Positions 13,220 to 21,019 of a stretch of DNA of 52,604 nucleotides are shown in pieces; positions within the stretch are counted from its first letter, which is position 1, and the number at the start of each line of letters is the position of its first letter. The DNA comes from Candidatus Margulisiibacteriota bacterium. GTDB lineage: Bacteria > Margulisbacteria > WOR-1 > O2-12-FULL-45-9. The notes under the pieces are model-generated. The model was not told the DNA's origin and ran no database searches. It worked only from the letters and a program-made list of their open reading frames with translations. The DNA lies in NCBI GenBank assembly GCA_034723395.1, contig JAYEOW010000006.1, positions 1 through 52,604 of the forward strand, in the 5' to 3' direction. A program made the translations under genes and the position numbers.

Positions 13220-13629
13220 ATTTTTCTCTCCGTTTCTGAAACAATCTCTATTTTAATCTCACAACATGATTTCGGTTTTAGTTCTTCCAACTTCTCCGCC
13301 CATTCTATCACACAAGCCCCACCACGAGAAAAATACTCTTCGATCCCTATCTCCTCAACTTCATCAACACTATTTAGCCGGTAAAGATCGACATGGAAAA
13401 AAGGGATGCGTCCCTGATACTCATTAATAATGATAAAAGTTGGAGAAGTTACGTAGTCTTTTACTCCTAAACCTTCTGCAATCCCCTGAATAAGAGTGGT
13501 TTTTCCTGCCCCTAATGTTCCGGTCAAACAAACCACACCATTGGGTTTTAAATTTTCGCCGATCTTCTTCCCTAACTCAATCGTCTCGCTGGCACTCCGT
13601 GTTACTCTGTGTTTCTCATTCCGTGTCAT
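13180..13629 (-). CDS. tsaE: tRNA t6A biosynthesis ATPase TsaE
   Basis: GTLGAGKTT, VTSPTF, HVDLYRL, IEWAE. Confidence 0.95.
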   Translation of the reverse strand: MTRNEKHRVTRSASETIELGKKIGENLKPNGVVCLTGTLGAGKTTLIQGIAEGLGVKDYVTSPTFIIINEYQGRIPFFHVDLYRLNSVDEVEEIGIEEYFSRGGACVIEWAEKLEELKPKSCCEIKIEIVSETERKICVSSELAARLKL

Positions 13630-13641
13630 TCCGTGTACAGA

Positions 13642-14286
13642 TTACCAACGCTCGTAGTCGTCTCCACTCCCACCCTTGATCTCTTTAAATCCCGGCAGCT
13701 CATCATCATACCGGCCACCAAGCTCGGCCTTCTTCTCTTCGTATAACGAACCGATGGTTTTCTCCAGCACCGGATGTTTGAGACTAGGAGAAATTTCTGC
13801 TAATGGCTTTAATACAAATAATCTTTCATGCATGAGTGGGTGCGGGATCTGCAGTTTATCATCTGATAATATTTCATCATTATAAAGCAAAATATCAATA
13901 TCAATCGTCCGCGGCCCCCACTCTATCTCTCTTTCTCTACCCAACGCAGCCTCAATTTCCTGGGTCAAATCGAGCAATTCCTGAGGAGATAGCTTGGTCT
14001 TAATCTCAAGTGCCCCATTAACAAACATTTGCTGATCACCCTTCCCCCCCTCGGCTTCGGTCTCTAAACTACTTGAACGTTTTAATACATCAACCTTTGG
14101 ATTCTTTTCTAAAAGAAAGATCGCCTGCTCAAGATACTCTTCACGGTCCCCGACATTTGAACCCAGTCCGAGATAGGCAATATTGACCCCTTTTTTCTTT
14201 TTGCCTCTTCCTGCCTTCTTTTTCTTCCTGGTTTTTCCCTTCTTTACAACTTTATTTTTAGTTTTTTTCTTCTTTTTCTTTGCCAT
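13642..14286 (-). CDS. folK: Hydroxymethyldihydropterin pyrophosphokinase with Lys-rich N-terminal extension
   Basis: YLGLGSNVGDR, WGPRTIDIDIL, IPHPLMHERLFVL. Confidence 0.93.
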   Translation of the reverse strand: MAKKKKKKTKNKVVKKGKTRKKKKAGRGKKKKGVNIAYLGLGSNVGDREEYLEQAIFLLEKNPKVDVLKRSSSLETEAEGGKGDQQMFVNGALEIKTKLSPQELLDLTQEIEAALGREREIEWGPRTIDIDILLYNDEILSDDKLQIPHPLMHERLFVLKPLAEISPSLKHPVLEKTIGSLYEEKKAELGGRYDDELPGFKEIKGGSGDDYERW

Positions 14287-14329
14287 CCCATTTCCTCCTT
14301 TGATCTGAGCCTGCTTGCCCCGAGTTTAA

Positions 14330-15532
14330 TCAAGGGGCCGAAGCTCTTGCAATTGCATCAGCCATCGCGGCAACTTTAACTATCTCTTTTACATCATGTA
14401 CCCTGATTATGTCAACCCCATTTGTAATTGAAACCGCCACTGTCGCCGCGGTCCCTTCAATCCTTTGGTCGGCAGGCAACCCCAAAACCTGGCCAATCAA
14501 TGATTTTCGGGAGGTCCCAACCATAATCGGACAACCCAACACCTTTAACTCTCTTAATCTTTTCAGAATTTCAAGGTTATGTAAAACTGTTTTCCCGAAA
14601 CCGATCCCCGGGTCAACAATTATTTTCTCATGAAGTATACCAGCCCGCCCGGCAATTTCAATCCTTTTTTTCAACCCTTCAATAATCTCTCCCATAAGGT
14701 CGGAATAACTTGGATTTTCCTGCATTGTCCGTGGATTACCCTGAATATGCATAACACATACGGGAACATTGAATTTTTTAACTGTCTTTGCCATCTCCGG
14801 ATCAAAAAGGAGGCCGGAAATGTCATTGACCATCGATGCCCCCGCCGAAAGCGCCGCAGCCGCAACCTCGGACTTGGTCGTATCAATTGAAATAATCGCG
14901 TCGGTCCGGCTGGCTAGCGCTTCGATCACCGGGACCACTCTTTCTTTCTCGACCGCAGCCGAAACCATTTCCGCTCCGGGCCGGGTAGATTCGCCGCCAA
15001 TATCGATAATATCCGCTCCATCCCTGGCCATCTGCACCGCATGCGCCACCGCCTTATTAATATCGGTAAATTTACCGCCGTCAGAAAACGAGTCGGGAGT
15101 TACGTTTAATATCCCCACAATAAAGGTCCGCTCACCTATATTCAGCGTCTTATTTCCAAATACGATCGGCTTGGGGGCCAAATCATAATTTTGCAAAGCT
15201 TTTTCGATCTCTTTCGCCAGGTCCGGCAATCCAAATTGGTGGATCTTTAACTTTTTAATCAGCTCCTGCAGCTGTTTTTGGGTGCCAAAGACCAGCATAT
15301 CGGTGGTATCGACCGAATAATTGATTGAACCATAGGTGGTAGCCGCCTCACCGCCAAAGGAGAGCATCTCCTGCTTGATAATATTTGCCGCCGGCGGCCT
15401 GACCCCTTCTATTTTCAGAACGCGGCTAACCGCTTTAGGAGCCATGATCTCTATTCCAACTTTGTCGGATCCAATAGAAAGCAGGTCCCGGCTCGCTGCT
15501 GATATATCATCAATCTCAATCACTCGGACCAT
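14330..15532 (-). CDS. folP: Dihydropteroate synthase with N-terminal extension
   Basis: GILNVTPDSFSDGG, DIGGESTRPG, GTSRKS, IRVHDV. Confidence 0.96.
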   Translation of the reverse strand: MVRVIEIDDISAASRDLLSIGSDKVGIEIMAPKAVSRVLKIEGVRPPAANIIKQEMLSFGGEAATTYGSINYSVDTTDMLVFGTQKQLQELIKKLKIHQFGLPDLAKEIEKALQNYDLAPKPIVFGNKTLNIGERTFIVGILNVTPDSFSDGGKFTDINKAVAHAVQMARDGADIIDIGGESTRPGAEMVSAAVEKERVVPVIEALASRTDAIISIDTTKSEVAAAALSAGASMVNDISGLLFDPEMAKTVKKFNVPVCVMHIQGNPRTMQENPSYSDLMGEIIEGLKKRIEIAGRAGILHEKIIVDPGIGFGKTVLHNLEILKRLRELKVLGCPIMVGTSRKSLIGQVLGLPADQRIEGTAATVAVSITNGVDIIRVHDVKEIVKVAAMADAIARASAP

Positions 15533-16905
15533 TATTTAATCTCCAGCTTTACAATCTCTTTGGTCTTCGGCGTAACCTTGGCCCGTTCATCCATTTGTAA
15601 TCCCGCAATCCAAATTATTTTCCCTCCACTTTCGAGGATCGGGACCAGATCACGTTGATCGGCCGGTATTTTATTATCGACAAACAGGTCCTGGACCTTT
15701 TTTGTCCCCGTCATTCCCAGCGGATTAAATTTATCTCCATCCGAACGGTTGCGAATGGTGATCTTTTTCCCCAGCACGGCATAATCGACATAAATCATAT
15801 TTTTAGAATTTGATAAATCCGTGTCCTTTACAATTTCCGCATTAATTTGTTTGCCAAGCTCACAAATATTTACCGATCCAGGGATAGTCAACAGATAACA
15901 AAATGACCCTCCTCCGGATAAAACCGGCTTTTCCCCGCTAATCGTTAATACCCCCTGGCTCCCCGAAGCAAAGATCCCCCCCGGCAGATGCAATTCCCAA
16001 CTTTCAGTATCATTTAATTTATCCCCGATATCTTTTATATGAACAAAAGAGACATCAATAAGATCCCCTTTTATTTTCTCGATAGCACAGCGCACCACCC
16101 TTCCCTGGATCGCCCCCTCAAGCCCTTTTAATTTTAACAGCTCTAATTTAAGCTCATTTTCGTCAGTAGAAACAATCATCTCTTTTAAATACTCATCTGC
16201 TTTTTTTTCGAGATAATCACTATCTTCGGTCAAAAGAAGGATGGTCTGTAAAATAATCTCTTTTATGTTCAAATTATAAAGGCGCAGCTGCGGGACCAAT
16301 TTCATCCTTACCCGATTACGCAGATACTTGGATTCATAATTGGTATAATCCCGCCGCGGGACCAGTTTTATACTGCCGACATACTCTTCGATCTCTTTGC
16401 GCCAGTTTTTGATCATTGGCCGGATAATTTTCCCCCGCTTAGGGGTTATCCCGCATAACCCTTTCAATCCCGCCCCGCGCAGCATCCGCATCAAAAATGT
16501 TTCAACATTATCATCTGCGGTATGGCCGACCGCGATTTTATCAGCCCCTATTTGTTTGGCAACCCTTTCAAAAAAATTATATCTAGCAACACGGGCAGCA
16601 GCCTCTAATCCTTTCTTTTCCTGGTTCGCCATCGCCTGCACGTCACATGCCTCAGCGGTAACCGGGATCCCCAGCCTGGAAGATAACTCCTGGACAAATT
16701 TCAGGTCCAATTCGGCATCTCCGCGCCGGAGCATATGGTTAAGATGGGCAACATGCAGATCGAGATCAAACTCCTCTTTTATGGAATGCAAAAGATTAAG
16801 CAGCGCGGTAGAATCTACCCCCCCGGATACCGCGATCAACACACGATCTCCCGGAGCTAATAATTCGTATTCTTTGATGGTCTTAATAAATTGATCTCTT
16901 ATCAT
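15532..16905 (-). CDS. tilS: tRNA(Ile)-lysidine synthase
   Basis: AVSGGVDS PP-loop, GHTADDNVETFL, YLRNRVR, C-terminal TilS domain. Confidence 0.95.
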   Translation of the reverse strand: MIRDQFIKTIKEYELLAPGDRVLIAVSGGVDSTALLNLLHSIKEEFDLDLHVAHLNHMLRRGDAELDLKFVQELSSRLGIPVTAEACDVQAMANQEKKGLEAAARVARYNFFERVAKQIGADKIAVGHTADDNVETFLMRMLRGAGLKGLCGITPKRGKIIRPMIKNWRKEIEEYVGSIKLVPRRDYTNYESKYLRNRVRMKLVPQLRLYNLNIKEIILQTILLLTEDSDYLEKKADEYLKEMIVSTDENELKLELLKLKGLEGAIQGRVVRCAIEKIKGDLIDVSFVHIKDIGDKLNDTESWELHLPGGIFASGSQGVLTISGEKPVLSGGGSFCYLLTIPGSVNICELGKQINAEIVKDTDLSNSKNMIYVDYAVLGKKITIRNRSDGDKFNPLGMTGTKKVQDLFVDNKIPADQRDLVPILESGGKIIWIAGLQMDERAKVTPKTKEIVKLEIK

Positions 16906-17087
16906 AATAATTCAATTAAATAACGGAACGAAAAAAATGTTAGAAACAGCAAAACCCAGGCAAAAAGCGCCTTCTCCCCATTCCGGCGCACGAATCCGTT
17001 ATTCTTTTTCTCAGTAAGTACAATATAAAGCGCCGGAAACCCAAATAAGTAGGCAGAAAAAACCAGACCTCTATCTCTAATACGCAT
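16902..17087 (-). CDS. Small membrane protein, possibly truncated
   Basis: 61 aa with two hydrophobic segments; stop overlaps the tilS start (ATGA). Confidence 0.55.
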   Translation of the reverse strand: MRIRDRGLVFSAYLFGFPALYIVLTEKKNNGFVRRNGEKALFAWVLLFLTFFSFRYLIELL

Positions 17088-17125
17088 TTTCTTTTCCTAA
17101 AATAATAATGGCGGCGAGTGGATTC

Positions 17126-17215
17126 TCCCGATTTCCTTATCATTCTAATACAATGTTTTTCGGGATCCCGACCGAAGTCCCGAAGGGATTCCGGGATTCC
17201 TTCGGAACGTCGGGA
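17126..17215. repeat. Two tandem TCCCGA...TCGGGA hairpin elements (40 and 50 bp)
   Basis: 17126-17165 and 17166-17215, inserted at TTC|GAA of the outer tRNA T-loop. Confidence 0.85.
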
Positions 17216-17247
17216 GAACCACTGACGCAGCGGGTATGAGCCGCTTG

Positions 17248-17360
17248 TCCCGATGTCGTAACTGTATTGCCGGGAGACGGACTCGAACCGTCGACACAAC
17301 GGGTATGAGCCGTTTGCTCTAACCAACTGAGCTATCCCGGCAATACAACGACACTAGGGT
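17248..17360. mobile_element. Hairpin element carrying an intact tRNA between its arms
   Basis: Left arm TCCCGATGTCGTAACTGTAT, right arm AATACAACGACACTAGGGT (degenerate inverted repeat). Confidence 0.6.
17268..17341 (-). tRNA. tRNA-Met(CAT), elongator-like (Ile2 not excluded); no encoded CCA
   Basis: GCCGGGATAGCTCAGTTGGTTAGAGCAAACGGCTCATACCCGTTGTGTCGACGGTTCGAGTCCGTCTCCCGGCA folds into a full cloverleaf. Confidence 0.93.
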
Positions 17361-17374
17361 CCTCACCAACTGAG

Positions 17375-17440
17375 TCCCGACGTTTCGACTTCGTCGAAAG
17401 TCGGGATCCCGATTTTTTGCCGAAGGCAAAAACATCGGGA
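17375..17440. repeat. Two tandem TCCCGA...TCGGGA hairpin elements (32 and 34 bp)
   Basis: 17375-17406 (TTC loop) and 17407-17440 (GAA loop), inserted at AG|CT of the outer tRNA D-stem. Confidence 0.88.
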
Positions 17441-17466
17441 CTACCCAGCCCTGACATGAGATTTTT

Positions 17467-17518
17467 AGGATAACATACCTGAAAAATATTTGCAATAATA
17501 TAGGGGCAGTGCTAAAAT
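17467..17518. promoter_or_regulatory. Divergent sigma-70 promoters sharing one palindromic -35 box
   Basis: TTGCAA at 17490-17495; 17 nt to TG-extended TAAAAT (17513-17518, +) and 17 nt to TG-extended TATCCT (17472-17467, -). Confidence 0.65.
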
Positions 17519-17541
17519 AGCTTGCTTAGGAGGGTTGTTTT

Positions 17542-17934
17542 TTGGTTGAGAACGTAAAAATAATGGTGGTAGATGATGAACCTTCGGTGCTGGAATCATT
17601 TAGGATGATCTTGGAAATAAAGGACTATTCGGTAGACACTTTTCCCGATGGCCCATCTGCCGTTTCCAAACTCGAAAAGGGAAAATACGACATCTGTTTT
17701 GTCGATTATAAGCTCCCCGGGATGGACGGTTTACAAGTACTAAAAAAGGTAAAAGAGATCGATCCAACGATCGAAGTGATCGTGGTTACCGCTTACGCCA
17801 GTGAAAAATCACAATCAAGCGCGATCCAACTTGGCGCGCTTGAATATTTGAGAAAACCGTTCCTGATGGATGAGATCTATGAGCTAGTCGAAAGAGGCCT
17901 GCGCAAAAGAAAAAGCGCAAAGGTGGAAAAATGA
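17542..17934 (+). CDS. Single-domain response regulator
   Basis: IMVVDDE, FVDYKLPGMDG, VTAY, YLRKPF; TTG start with AGGAGG SD. Confidence 0.92.
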   Translation: MVENVKIMVVDDEPSVLESFRMILEIKDYSVDTFPDGPSAVSKLEKGKYDICFVDYKLPGMDGLQVLKKVKEIDPTIEVIVVTAYASEKSQSSAIQLGALEYLRKPFLMDEIYELVERGLRKRKSAKVEK

Positions 17935-18389
17935 TAGGAGAAAACGTAAGAATTGCCGCCATCGATGATGAAAATACGGTTTTGGACTCTTTTAAGATGA
18001 TCCTGGAGATTAAGAACTATGATGTTAATCTATTCGAGTCAGCTACCGAATTCCTGAAGAATTTTAAAAAAGGCACATACGATATCATCTTCCTCGACCT
18101 GTTGCTAAAGAAAGACCCCCCTCCCTATAACGATACCAAGACCAGAGATGGCGGGGTTAAGATACTGGTAAAGATCAAAGAGATCGATCCGGATGTCGAA
18201 GTGATCATTGTCACCGGGTTCGCCACCGAAAAAACCCATTCTAATGCTATTTCTTACGGTGCGATGGATTATCTAAGCAAACCTTTTGTAATGGAAGATA
18301 TCTACGATCTGATCAACCGGGCAATCCGTAAAAGACGGGACAAAAAATCGAGGAAGAAAAAAGGCGGATCGATCGGCTCCGTGCATTAA
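17931..18389 (+). CDS. Single-domain response regulator with loop insertion
   Basis: IAAIDDE, FLDLLL, VTGF, YLSKPF. Confidence 0.88.
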   Translation: MIGENVRIAAIDDENTVLDSFKMILEIKNYDVNLFESATEFLKNFKKGTYDIIFLDLLLKKDPPPYNDTKTRDGGVKILVKIKEIDPDVEVIIVTGFATEKTHSNAISYGAMDYLSKPFVMEDIYDLINRAIRKRRDKKSRKKKGGSIGSVH

Positions 18390-18391
18390 AA

Positions 18392-19309
18392 TCAGTCCCG
18401 CTGACCGATCAGAAGCATCCTCTCAATGGCTACTTTAGCTTTATCCGCGACTGCCTTCGGAACTTTAACTTCGGTTTCAATATCTTCCAACGACCAAAGA
18501 ATTTTTTCCAGGTTGGTCATTTTCATATTAGGACAGATCGCCTGGTCGTAGGCGAGATAGAATTTCTTGTCCGGATTCTCTTTCTTCAGACAATGGGTAA
18601 TCCCTATCTCCGTCCCGACAATGATCTCTTTGGCATCCGTCTCAGCAGCAAACTTGAGCATCCCTCCGGTCGAGAGGACCTCATCGGCCAAAGCGATCGT
18701 CTCCGGACGGCATTCGGGATGGACCATCACCTTCGCCTTTGGGTGATCTTCTTTAACTGCAAAAATGTGCTGCGGGAGGATCTTAGCATGGGTCGGGCAA
18801 AATCCCTGCCAGAGGATGAACTTTTTATCCTTAACCTTGGTCGAAGCGTAATTGCCAAGGAACTTATCAGGGACAAAAATGATCTCTCTGGCATCTTTTA
18901 AAGAATTAACTACGCTTACCGCGTTAGCAGAAGTACAGCAGATATCAGATTCTGCTTTTATTTCGGCTGTAGAATTTACATAACAGACAACCTTTGCCTT
19001 TGGATTCTCTTTTTTAATTTTTCTCAAGCCTTCGATCGTGATCATATCGGCCATTGGGCATCCGGCATGCACTTCGGGCATGATCACTTTTCTGTCTGGA
19101 GAGATAATTGCCGCAGTCTCAGCCATAAAATGGACGCCGCAAAAAACGATCACATCCGCATCGGTTTTCGAAGCTTGGATAGAGAGGCCGAGCGAATCTC
19201 CAACGTAATCGGCGATATCCTGGACTTCAGCAATCTGATAATTATGGGCCAAGATTACGGCATTCCGCTCCTTTTTTAGCTTCTTTATTTTCTCAGCAAT
19301 ATCTTGCAT
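18392..19309 (-). CDS. nadA: Quinolinate synthase
   Basis: LAHNYQ, FCGVHFMAE, GCPMAD, CYVNS, CPNMK; true start MQDIAEK at 19309 overlaps the upstream stop. Confidence 0.96.
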   Translation of the reverse strand: MQDIAEKIKKLKKERNAVILAHNYQIAEVQDIADYVGDSLGLSIQASKTDADVIVFCGVHFMAETAAIISPDRKVIMPEVHAGCPMADMITIEGLRKIKKENPKAKVVCYVNSTAEIKAESDICCTSANAVSVVNSLKDAREIIFVPDKFLGNYASTKVKDKKFILWQGFCPTHAKILPQHIFAVKEDHPKAKVMVHPECRPETIALADEVLSTGGMLKFAAETDAKEIIVGTEIGITHCLKKENPDKKFYLAYDQAICPNMKMTNLEKILWSLEDIETEVKVPKAVADKAKVAIERMLLIGQRD

Positions 19310-19971
19310 TACCAACCCCTTTCTCTTGAAAGCATTCGCATCTTCCATATCTTCGGGGAACATGCTTTATAGATAAAACGATTGGCCTCCTCCAGCCATT
19401 TCAGCCGCTGGCTGTCAGTAAGCTTACTACACCACTTTAAATAATCTTTATCTTCTTTGGTTAATCTATATCCCTTTCTTTTTTTGCCATACCCGCTCCT
19501 CGCCATCTTAAGATAACCAAGATCTCTTGGGTCCTTTTCTCTCCCTGCTATCTCTTTCATCTTCAACAGATCATTAAAACTTATTAACGGTACCTTTACT
19601 CCTTCTACTATTCTTGTTTCTCGTTTTTTATATGCCTCTTCAAAAATTATCGGGTTTTTCGTGAAAAGGTCAACCCTTTCCAGTTCATCCTTAGGATTAT
19701 AAAAAATAATCGTCGATCCTTTCCAACCCTCGAGCTTCGCACAACCGTTAACAAATTCCATTTTGTCAACTTTTAAGGATTTATATACTTTATACTTCAA
19801 ATCCTTCATCGCTGTGAATATCCTATCAAAATTCTCTTTTTTTATATCCGCCATTAAATCGATATCAAGGGTTAATCTAGAAACTCCGTATAAATTAGTT
19901 GCTATTCCTCCAACAACTAGATACTCAACCTTATGTTTATTTAATTCTTTAATAATTTTCAAGTAAAACAT
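19309..19971 (-). CDS. Nucleotidyltransferase (DUF6036-like) fused in frame to its small partner protein
   Basis: YLVVGGIATNLYGVSRLTLDIDL, DLLKMK..AGREKD; tail WCSKLTDSQRLKWLEE. Confidence 0.8.
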   Translation of the reverse strand: MFYLKIIKELNKHKVEYLVVGGIATNLYGVSRLTLDIDLMADIKKENFDRIFTAMKDLKYKVYKSLKVDKMEFVNGCAKLEGWKGSTIIFYNPKDELERVDLFTKNPIIFEEAYKKRETRIVEGVKVPLISFNDLLKMKEIAGREKDPRDLGYLKMARSGYGKKRKGYRLTKEDKDYLKWCSKLTDSQRLKWLEEANRFIYKACSPKIWKMRMLSRERGW

Positions 19972-19972
19972 A

Positions 19973-21019
19973 TCAGCTGATTATTCCTCCTCCCAACACG
20001 TCATCCCCCTTACAAAAAACCACCGATTGGCCGGGGGTAATTGCTCTTTGTGGTCGCTTGAACACTACCTTTACCTTTTCCTCTTCCTGGGAATACAAAA
20101 CAGCCTCAGCCTCTAACGAATTATATCTTATCTTAGCCTTAATATTCAAAGGCTCATCGGGAGCCTTTCCCGAAATATAACTAACGTTATCCGCGATCAG
20201 CTCTTTTGCCAAAAGATCTTCCTGACCGCCAATAATTACCGCATTATTTTTACGGTCGAGTGCAACCACATATTTGGGGAGGCTTTTATGCGAACCTATC
20301 CCCTTCCGTTGTCCCAAAGTATAGAAAGCGATCCCGTCGTGCTGACCGAGAACATTTCCATCCTGATCCATAATCGGTCCTGGCTTAACCGCCTCCGGAC
20401 AATTCTCCTTTATAAATCGACCGTAATCGTCGTCCTCTACAAAACAGATCTCCTGGCTCTCCTTTTTCCCCGCCACCGGGAGATCAAACTTTTTCGCCAG
20501 CTCGCGAACTTCTTCTTTTGTCATCTCTCCCAACGGGTATAAAGTATGTGCTAAACTCTCCTGGTTCATCATATAGAGAACGTAGGCTTGATCTTTTCGT
20601 TTATCGATCCCTTTTAATAATTTGAATTGTGATACGGGAGATGTGATATGTGAAATGCGGGCGTAGTGACCAGTAGCCACAAATTCTGCTCCAAGCTCTT
20701 TCGCCTTCTGGTGAAGATAATCAAACTTAATAAACTGGTTGCATCTAATGCAAGGATTTGGTGTTCTCCCATGTTTATATTCTTTGATAAAATCATCTAC
20801 AACCTGCTTTTTAAAAACATCCCTAAAATCAACGCTAAGGTGGGGAATATCCAGCCCATCCGCAATCTTTTTTGCTTCAGCTCCTTTATCTAGCTCTGTC
20901 AGCCGCATGGTTATTCCAATAACATCATACCCCTGCTCTTTTAAAAGGGCTGCGGCCACAGAGGAATCTACTCCGCCAGACATTGCGACAACAATTTTTT
21001 TCTTGTTTCTTGGATACAT
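19973..21019 (-). CDS. mnmA: tRNA 2-thiouridylase
   Basis: AMSGGVDSS, TPNPCIRCN, ATGHYA, ESQEICF, AITPGQ. Confidence 0.97.
   Translation of the reverse strand: MYPRNKKKIVVAMSGGVDSSVAAALLKEQGYDVIGITMRLTELDKGAEAKKIADGLDIPHLSVDFRDVFKKQVVDDFIKEYKHGRTPNPCIRCNQFIKFDYLHQKAKELGAEFVATGHYARISHITSPVSQFKLLKGIDKRKDQAYVLYMMNQESLAHTLYPLGEMTKEEVRELAKKFDLPVAGKKESQEICFVEDDDYGRFIKENCPEAVKPGPIMDQDGNVLGQHDGIAFYTLGQRKGIGSHKSLPKYVVALDRKNNAVIIGGQEDLLAKELIADNVSYISGKAPDEPLNIKAKIRYNSLEAEAVLYSQEEEKVKVVFKRPQRAITPGQSVVFCKGDDVLGGGIIS

Follow-up and report, generated by a model that had tools for sequence, protein, structure and literature searches.

How does a complete tRNA gene come to lie within the scattered pieces of a second tRNA gene that has the same CAT anticodon, and what has become of the outer copy? 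This question is raised by a locus on contig JAYEOW010000006.1 from a Candidatus Margulisiibacteriota bacterium. We call the whole stretch of DNA that was analysed, 52,604 nt in length, the window, and its genome (1.68 Mb, 55 contigs, 45% G+C, listed as 97% complete) G000. A first-pass annotation, made from the letters of the window, offered two readings: (a) that a small hairpin element targets a tRNA gene and compensates by delivering a whole isoacceptor, the old gene collecting further inserts afterwards; or (b) that the inserts are removed from the precursor RNA, one transcript giving two tRNAs.

An intact tRNA gene inside an outer mosaic

The single tRNA reported by ARAGORN in the 52.6-kb window is a minus-strand tRNA-Met(cat), the inner copy of the nest (Table 1). 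The Rfam tRNA model (RF00005) places it at 17268-17341 on the same strand and scores it above the gathering score of 29; a cloverleaf of sufficient score and an anticodon are thus both present, as expected of a tRNA gene, and the intact inner tRNA(CAT) of the first-pass annotation is borne out by the two programs. Exactly one ARAGORN tRNA(CAT) lies between a response-regulator gene and tilS in every one of 31 relatives compared (Candidatus Margulisiibacteriota, Saganbacteria or WOR-1). The inner tRNA(CAT) is the working gene of this conserved tilS-linked slot and, from the adjoining tilS, is probably a tRNA-Ile2. Leaving the outer copy aside, there are three CAT tRNAs in G000.

The response-regulator gene upstream of the tRNA is divergently transcribed. 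Named from their translations, the ORFs of 13500-21000 comprise a small kinase-like gene, folK-like and folP-like genes, tilS, the small membrane ORF, two response regulators, and nadA-like and mnmA-like genes. No integrase, nuclease or transposase gene was found among them, and as far as these ORFs go, the first-pass annotation was right to say that an integrase is missing. An Rfam scan of 16900-17600 at E-values up to 1 returned only the tRNA and weak unrelated matches, and no group I ribozyme fold was detected in the insert by the same scan.

A promoter-like motif lies 5' of the outer tRNA, its two halves on the minus strand at 17495-17490 (TTGCAA) and 17472-17467 (TATCCT), with 8 of 12 consensus matches. 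In the parts of the loci read, TTGCAA, 17 nt and TATYCT upstream of this tRNA are common to the relatives. The transcription start predicted by the first-pass annotation was not confirmed by a simple consensus promoter scan, which did not list the minus-strand TTGCAA/TATCCT motif.

The outer tRNA was rebuilt by joining its four fragments at the coordinates in Table 1. ARAGORN accepts the joined pieces as a 73-nt tRNA-Met(cat), in agreement with the earlier reconstruction. In the joined sequence, the anticodon stem (loop CTCATAC) and the T-stem pair perfectly, the D-stem is weak and five of the seven acceptor pairs form; one further G dropped at 17361 gives an outer D-stem of 3 pairs. The outer copy does not have the intact acceptor and D stems of a functional tRNA gene. 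We compared the pieces with the same-locus tRNAs of relatives by local alignment (+1 per match, -1 per mismatch). The 24-nt 5' piece had a best score of 21, against the GGCTGGG-type tRNAs of L163, L025 and L022; the 32-nt piece (17216-17247) scored 30 against L015 and has a 97% identity match in G032; and the 17-nt piece (17109-17125) reached its best score of 15 against GGCGG-type tRNAs (L018 and L017). Judged by these alignments, the likeness of the outer pieces to tRNAs is not due to chance. The outer gene is also a mosaic by alignment, with a 5' piece of the GGCTGGG type and 3' pieces of the GGCGG type; the CGCCGCC acceptor 3' strand of 17109-17125 mismatches the outer 5' strand. The D-loop of the outer fragment in one relative (G011) is shortened in a similar way to that of the window.

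The four short inserts are hairpins that start with TCCCGA and end with TCGGGA, and they form two tandem pairs, one between tRNA positions 10 and 11 and one between positions 56 and 57 (10/11 and 56/57 hereafter; all insertion positions were read by eye from the sequences). An insertion at 10/11 is also present in G011 (L025), and the T-loop site TTC/RAA holds hairpin pairs in at least 10 other tRNA fragments of at least four tRNA kinds. The middle insert is a cargo hairpin, its inverted-repeat arms surrounding the inner tRNA. The first-pass annotation had likened it to the other four inserts: its plus-strand start is indeed TCCCGA, but its other end is degenerate (CTAGGGT). The further claim that its arms pair and extend the inner acceptor stem was confirmed: the perfect arms are 13 nt long, acceptor stem included, and the leader-trailer duplex has an energy of -16.5 kcal/mol. 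L163, L008 and L013 have cargo hairpins of the same kind. The 342-nt stretch as a whole folds with a z-score of -8.7 relative to shuffled sequences, and none of 100 shuffles folded as well.

The TCCCGA..TCGGGA termini provide the terminal inverted repeats of a MITE. There is no target-site duplication: the pieces rejoin to a tRNA of normal length with zero extra bases. Neither do the inserts have the form of bulge-helix-bulge introns; by eye, each is a flush hairpin bounded on both sides by the base of its stem.

Table 1. Features of the nested tRNA locus and its flanks, in coordinates of the window
Feature	Coordinates	Strand	Basis or details
Downstream genes on the same strand: small membrane ORF (16902-17087) and tilS (15532-16905)	15532..17087	-	Synteny in 31/31 relatives
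Outer fragment, tRNA positions 57-73 (T-loop 3' half, CGCCGCC acceptor 3' strand)	17109..17125	-	ARAGORN
Tandem hairpins in the T-loop at 56/57	17126..17215		17126-17165 with AT-rich loop; 17166-17215 compound, GC-rich
Outer fragment, positions 25-56 (anticodon arm CTCATAC, variable region, T-stem 5' strand)	17216..17247	-	ARAGORN, alignment
Cargo hairpin, inverted-repeat arms around the inner tRNA	17248..17360		TCCCGA/TCGGGA end 17248-17253; degenerate end 17354-17360
Inner intact tRNA(CAT)	17267..17342	-	ARAGORN; Rfam 69.4 bits; one tRNA(CAT) here in 31/31 relatives
Outer fragment, positions 11-24, damaged D-arm	17361..17374	-	GGTGAGG where relatives have GGTTAGAG
Tandem hairpins 17375-17406 and 17407-17440, TCCCGA..TCGGGA, at 10/11	17375..17440		Fold energies -19.6 and -18.5 kcal/mol
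Outer fragment, positions 1-10, GGCTGGG-type acceptor 5' strand	17441..17450	-	ARAGORN on joined pieces
Promoter-like motif TTGCAA, 17 nt, TATCCT, 5' of the outer 5' fragment	17467..17495	-	Kept upstream of the tRNA in relatives

The same slot in relatives

Comparison of the locus across relatives, in the spirit of what the first-pass annotation had proposed to order the insertions, revealed empty loci, one fresh single insertion and decayed forms. In the parts of the loci read, 27 of the 31 relatives have no insert. The inner tRNA without flanking tRNA pieces was the arrangement that the first-pass annotation had named beforehand as telling against its account, and it is what these 27 relatives have; the other four (G005, G009, G011 and G025) carry extra tRNA pieces and hairpins. 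The fresh insertion is on a metagenome contig, L163, where an intact outer gene is split once, at 24/25, by a long hairpin whose loop is an intact tRNA of the other allele class; ARAGORN accepts the rejoined outer gene. It likewise accepts the rejoined outer tRNAs of G009 and G025. Both of these have, at 24/25, a long hairpin followed by a hairpin with the intact inner tRNA and, at 56/57, a hairpin pair, to which G025 adds one more degenerate hairpin. In G005, the outer 5' part is gone and the 3' part is kept, with a pair at 39/40. In G011, only the 5' fragment is kept, with a pair at 10/11, just upstream of the intact gene.

The cargo hairpin therefore recurs at one place in the tRNA, 24/25 in G009, G025 and L163 and either 24/25 or 25/26 in the window. 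Its arms differ among these four loci but pair in each, and the termini are conserved, apart from the degenerate far end in the window. The junction TTGGYTAGAGTCCCG was found in two of 146 genomes of the phylum, G009 and G025. Three of the nested loci (the window, L163 and G011) retain an outer 5' fragment, and in each it lies directly below the TTGCAA..TATYCT motif; this position under a conserved upstream motif marks the outer gene as the resident. A search for a close strain pair with one filled and one empty site found none, and the mobility of the insert is accordingly inferred from distant relatives (~70% nucleotide identity, flanking genes).

By their anticodon arms, the tRNAs of this slot fall into two classes, type A in 24 of 41 genomes and type B in 12 of 41, with no genome having both as separate genes. 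Both types are scattered within family f1. Such mutually exclusive and scattered classes fit a turnover of alleles. The inner tRNA of the window combines the two sources: positions 1-25 (acceptor and D-arm) are identical to type-A alleles (25/25), and a 41-nt core (about positions 26-66) is identical to the outer gene of L163 (41/41). Since the fragments derive from at least two earlier alleles, replacement would have happened more than once, and the mosaic indicates, as far as alignments can, repeated replacement and recombination rather than a gene kept for splicing.

Hairpins, tRNA fragments and GIY-YIG genes in the lineage

The longer hairpins have a consensus in common, in which the terminal stem is conserved, the inner stem is AT-rich and there is an internal asymmetry. 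The sequence where the two members of a tandem pair meet, YCGGGATCCCGR, is present in 29 of 30 relatives from the two nearest families, at 1-19 copies per genome (control, 0-1); it was found in 68 of 146 genomes of the phylum overall and is sparser beyond those two families. No Rfam family matched the hairpins. On these counts, the hairpin family is apparently specific to this lineage. Within G000, CGGGATCCCG occurs 29 times, compared with 0-21 times for eight control palindromes. These occurrences make about 14 true pairs, of which at least six are in tRNA-derived sequence by eye; the remaining pairs are in the 16S-23S spacer and in other intergenic DNA. A relaxed pattern (TCCCG..CGGGA with a stem rule) was abandoned as too noisy, with control words giving similar counts. 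The long-hairpin motif had 13 matches in viral contigs, all of them chance matches in coding sequence that do not form a hairpin.

Within redundant tRNA fragments, the TCCCGA..TCGGGA hairpins are found in the D-arm, at 39/40 and at 56/57, usually as tandem pairs. The flanks to the left of the inserts vary (TAG, GAG, AAG, ACG and TTC). Several of the insertion sites, read by eye, are the centres of short palindromes (AG/CT, TTC/GAA). A second cargo hairpin is present in G000, on contig C41, where a tRNA-Pro(CGG) lies between the remains of a different Pro allele. A third candidate, around a tRNA-Arg(CCT), was rejected: the inverted repeat between the end of contig C16 and the start of C54 comes from the beginning of a P-loop kinase gene (aroK-like by reading) folded back on itself, and its TCGGGA is coding sequence. 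When the TCCCGA..TCGGGA hairpins were excised in silico across the genome and ARAGORN was rerun, zero new tRNAs appeared; at wider settings, the tRNA-Pro(CGG) was lost.

The 46 tRNAs that ARAGORN finds in G000 are all uninterrupted and cover every amino acid except Asp. Contig C12 has a tandem array of at least four tRNA-Asp copies with hairpins after position 39 in each; one copy also has hairpins at 56/57, and a GIY-YIG ORF follows after three copies. The contig ends inside this array, and neither the 3' end of tRNA-Asp nor any intact Asp gene is present in the G000 assembly. As all four assembled Asp copies carry the hairpin after position 39, some room is left for a working interrupted tRNA. 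The anticodon-arm motif of tRNA-Asp was found in 24 relatives, with an uninterrupted copy wherever the contig continues past the gene. In G020, a truncated hairpin-bearing Asp copy is followed by a GIY-YIG ORF and then by an intact gene, and in G018 and G019 an intact Asp gene comes first and then a 3' partial copy, whose pair is at 56/57.

Relatives of the small GIY-YIG protein encoded in C12 were found in 39 of 41 genomes. In 21 of 23 loci, the GIY-YIG ORF is followed on its own strand, after 4-99 nt, by an intact tRNA; tRNAs for Pro, Asp, Thr, Ala, Glu, Leu, Ser and Tyr are represented. Exact matches of at least 10 nt to the locus's own tRNA were found upstream of the ORF in 21/21 cases and downstream in 11/21; by an arithmetic estimate, about 0.03 such matches per locus are expected by chance. 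Hairpins accompany 10 of the upstream and eight of the downstream tRNA fragments. An example of the layout is an outer 5' part with a D-loop pair, then the nuclease gene, the intact tRNA, and an outer 3' part with a pair at 56/57. At the window, the intact tRNA is flanked by fragments of the same tRNA in this manner and the nuclease ORF is missing; the locus has the GIY-YIG nested design without the nuclease gene. In lineages without the hairpin family (L173 and L179), tRNA fragments accompany nuclease cassettes and the fragments are plain, which shows that the hairpins are a separate, added agent rather than a by-product.

Enzymes that might move or splice the inserts were also searched for. 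Y1 transposases are present in 27 of 41 genomes, with only a truncated copy in G000. Neither a TnpB zinc-ribbon domain nor an IS110 transposase was found in G000. Given the absent TnpB, the truncated TnpA and the varying flanks, the inserts do not have the TnpA/TnpB genes and constant 5' target motif of IS200/IS605-derived elements. A link to REP/RAYT systems was dropped after inspection of 14 RAYT loci, all of them flanked by other palindromes. The EndA splicing endonuclease (PF01974) gave no match in G000, a genome listed as 97% complete, against matches in 4 of 14 control genomes. G000 does encode RtcB, as do 10 of 14 control genomes.

Replacement, its rivals and its relation to known systems

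Taken together, we think it probable that the locus arose by gene replacement at the DNA level and is not a spliced gene. In this scheme, a small palindromic element, with arms ending in TCCCGA/TCGGGA and a complete tRNA of the same kind in its loop, would have struck the tilS-adjoining tRNA(CAT) gene in the D-arm at 24/25. The cargo tRNA would have assumed the function and the halves of the resident would have become dead fragments. The cargo would probably be transcribed from the resident promoter as a longer precursor and be released by the usual enzymes of tRNA end processing, while the arms pair as a leader-trailer helix. The short hairpin pairs lie at 10/11 and 56/57, sites that the same family occupies in redundant tRNA fragments across the lineage. 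As to the mover, our best guess is that the small GIY-YIG proteins found in the nested design at other loci act in trans as nucleases; alternatively, plain homologous recombination could have sufficed, with the conserved tRNA halves as homology arms. Reading (a) of the first-pass annotation thus fits the native position of the outer pieces, the stages seen in relatives and the lineage-specific hairpins.

A broader proposal is put forward more tentatively, as a real possibility that may well fail. The TCCCGA..TCGGGA hairpins may be a new class of tiny protein-less mobile DNA that targets the D- and T-loops of tRNAs, and the cargo form may be a self-compensating gene-replacement drive, causing a turnover of tRNA alleles across species, perhaps with the GIY-YIG proteins assisting in trans. 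If so, the cargo form, bringing a complete replacement tRNA, could destroy an essential resident and yet be impossible to lose.

It is also conceivable, though we consider it unlikely, that no dedicated mobile element was involved. Local duplication, gene conversion and recombination with foreign DNA would then have produced the copies, the hairpins would be ordinary palindromes in unselected DNA and the nesting would be incidental. The hairpin pairs outside tRNA fragments, in the 16S-23S spacer and at other intergenic sites, would be expected on this account, as would the recombinant nature of the inner tRNA itself and the failure to find a mobilising enzyme among the locus ORFs, in the search of G000 for TnpB and IS110 or at the flanks of RAYT genes. 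It does not explain so readily why the cargo hairpin occupies the same tRNA position (24/25 or 25/26) across G009, G025, L163 and the window, why pairs recur at TTC/RAA in so many fragments and tRNA kinds, why insertions are exact to the base, or why the fragments are plain in the L173 and L179 lineages that do not have the hairpin family.

Removal at the RNA level, reading (b) above, fares worse, and we regard it as very improbable. The hairpins would then be intervening sequences of a type new to bacterial tRNAs, cut at the base of the TCCCGA/TCGGGA stem, with the exons ligated (e.g. by RtcB) and both tRNAs made from one precursor. The exactness of the insertions would suit such a process: there are no duplicated or missing bases, the sites recur at fixed tRNA positions, and ARAGORN accepts the rejoined outer genes of G009, G025, L163 and the window; the intact look of the rejoined genes in G009 and L163 is what would also be expected if those genes were still used. 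RtcB is indeed encoded in G000, but it is common in bacteria, as the control genomes show, and EndA was not found. A hairpin in all assembled Asp copies of G000 would also suit removal from the RNA; in G020, an intact Asp gene stands after the interrupted, truncated one. The bulges of the archaeal motif are missing from the junctions, which are flush stems. The outer gene of the window has two acceptor mismatches and a damaged D-arm and is a mosaic of two alleles, and the outer copies of G005 and G011 have been partly deleted. The same hairpin pairs also occur in fragments that do not have whole tRNA parts, beside an intact uninterrupted copy; the 46 ARAGORN tRNAs of G000, serving all amino acids but Asp, are without exception uninterrupted; and the two allele classes never coexist as separate genes. 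The mosaic outer gene with its 5/7 acceptor, the piecemeal loss, the hairpins in truncated fragments and the missing EndA thus all speak against two tRNAs from one transcript. An assembly artefact, in which reads from several tRNA genes or strains were joined into a chimera, is scarcely credible: palindromes and tRNA repeats do break the assembly elsewhere (C12 and C16/C54), but a Logan contig (run X1, 6646 nt, depth 15.7), possibly built from the same reads as the window and so not independent, spans 16700-17900 with zero differences, and comparable nested structures are present in four relatives' genomes and one metagenome contig.

Gene replacement by a cargo hairpin has partial counterparts among known systems. 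The tRNA-targeting integrative elements (tyrosine-integrase islands, prophages and pNOB8-type archaeal plasmids) are alike in inserting into a tRNA gene, compensating with their own tRNA copy and leaving a displaced partial copy. These elements are kilobases long, encode an integrase and make good no more of the gene than what lies beyond the crossover. The window, by contrast, has a whole tRNA in ~110 bp, no recombinase gene and an insertion point in the D-arm. Sugahara et al. (2012; PMC3293823) propose that integration of this kind created a tRNA fragment and introns in an archaeon. At the window itself, no integrase was found among the locus ORFs, and a whole tRNA is carried rather than a restoring 3' part.

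The phage T4 gene SegB is a free-standing GIY-YIG homing endonuclease gene beside tRNA genes, and genes of this type resemble the GIY-YIG ORFs directly upstream of intact tRNAs in the lineage. The window differs in having no nuclease gene, the hairpin pairs have no phage counterpart, and the proteins of the lineage are only putative homing enzymes. Archaeal multi-intron, split and permuted tRNA genes are alike in having short inserts at several non-canonical positions, including the D-arm and the T-loop region. These archaeal disrupted tRNAs need both the EndA endonuclease and a bulge-helix-bulge motif. At the loci compared here, the insert stems are flush at the junctions, no EndA was found in G000, and interrupted copies are seen to decay.

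REP/RAYT elements and MITEs share with the hairpins their small size and extragenic palindromes, conserved ends, tens of copies per genome and frequent pairing. They differ in that the RAYT genes of the lineage are flanked by other palindromes and no target-site duplication was seen, and ordinary REPs are not known to occupy fixed positions of tRNA sequences or to carry a tRNA. Similar in form are the mitochondrial double-hairpin and repetitive hairpin-forming elements, which are described in sections of one report (PMC2800124) as short palindromic units with conserved stems, often in tandem, non-coding and spread within genomes. According to the same sections, they are sometimes inside RNA genes and are not removed from transcripts. 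They lie in tolerant parts of rRNAs and in spacers, and those sections of PMC2800124 do not report fixed tRNA positions or gene cargo; the hairpin family of the window is, moreover, bacterial.

The combination of a protein-less palindromic element, fixed tRNA positions and a whole-tRNA cargo is found in none of these closest systems. In a limited full-text set, a literature search found no description of hairpin-interrupted or nested bacterial tRNA genes, or of GIY-YIG cassettes inside tRNA fragments, in keeping with the first-pass remark that no described system was known. From the sequences compared, the better reading of the window element is as a presumptive mobile element whose target is a tRNA gene and which makes up for the harm done there.

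Essential tRNA genes are usually regarded as stable, vertically inherited markers. Here, one essential tRNA slot has two allele classes, scattered over related genera and not found together as separate genes, along with physical intermediates in which one allele overwrites the other, and it is these visible intermediates of replacement that make the locus of interest. The finding provides no evidence for bacterial tRNA splicing. In practice, hairpin-nested loci can mislead tRNA annotation and break assemblies, as in the tRNA-Asp array that ends its contig. With replacement caught at several stages in relatives, it appears that a small selfish element overwrites essential tRNA genes here and that they are not spliced. 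Should the cargo hairpin prove to be mobile, it would be a very small selfish element that pays for the damage it does with a whole gene, and it would explain part of the litter of tRNA fragments in uncultured bacteria.

Hairpins in and around tRNA genes of the genome

The genome that holds the window (G000) carries further hairpins of the TCCCGA..TCGGGA family; their positions are among those collected in the table. The hairpin on contig C41 is a second cargo hairpin within this genome, i.e. one with a complete tRNA in its loop, and its flanks are the first 10 and the last 9 bases of another tRNA-Pro allele, one on each side. The pentamer and half hairpin on contig C29 look like another T-loop fragment. 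We also observed that the right flank of the hairpin pair on contig C28 is similar to a tRNA start.

Hairpins interrupt all four of the tRNA-Asp(GTC) copies seen in the array on contig C12, and a GIY-YIG ORF (a small nuclease ORF, here of ~80 aa) follows three of them. The end of contig C12 falls within the array. An intact tRNA-Asp is absent from the G000 assembly.

Features of G000 discussed in this part (all entries on numbered contigs lie outside the window)
Feature	Location	Strand	Details
tRNA-Pro(CGG) in loop of TCCCGA..TCGGGA hairpin	C41:6633-6730		
Hairpin pair, TCCCGA..TCGGGA family	C28:3980-4033		Spacer, directly past 16S rRNA gene 3' end
GGTTC, then left half of long hairpin	C29:57375-57470		Downstream of initiator-like tRNA(CAT)
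Tandem tRNA-Asp(GTC) array	C12:1-1350		Unit length ~440 bp
Truncated Y1 transposase gene (RAYT or IS200-type)	C19:37834-38058		
tmRNA	C50:28727-29140		ARAGORN, 414 nt
Small membrane ORF	Window 16902-17087	-	61 aa, between tRNA and tilS

Other repeats and RNA genes

The Y1 transposase gene is flanked by hairpins from a different palindrome family. A long perfect inverted repeat seemingly flanks tRNA-Arg(CCT) at the end of contig C16 and the start of contig C54 (outside the window). This repeat proved to consist of the opening stretch of a P-loop kinase gene (aroK-like), read once in each direction; the likely explanation is therefore that the sequence folds back where a contig ends. The tag encoded by the tmRNA, as predicted by ARAGORN, is unusually long (28 residues) and ends in AYAA.

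The small ORF and the -35 hexamer in the window

At the loci of the relatives (genomes with a tRNA(CAT) locus linked to tilS), the spacing corresponding to the small membrane ORF is seemingly about twice as long as in the window; thus, the ORF of G000 may be shortened.

The hexamer TTGCAA (window 17490-17495) is palindromic, being identical to its own reverse complement. The promoter scan lists a TTGCAA-based element on the + strand, for the response-regulator gene, and on the tRNA side (- strand) the hexamer is conserved in relatives. TTGCAA could act as a -35 element for both the response-regulator gene (+) and the tRNA (-).
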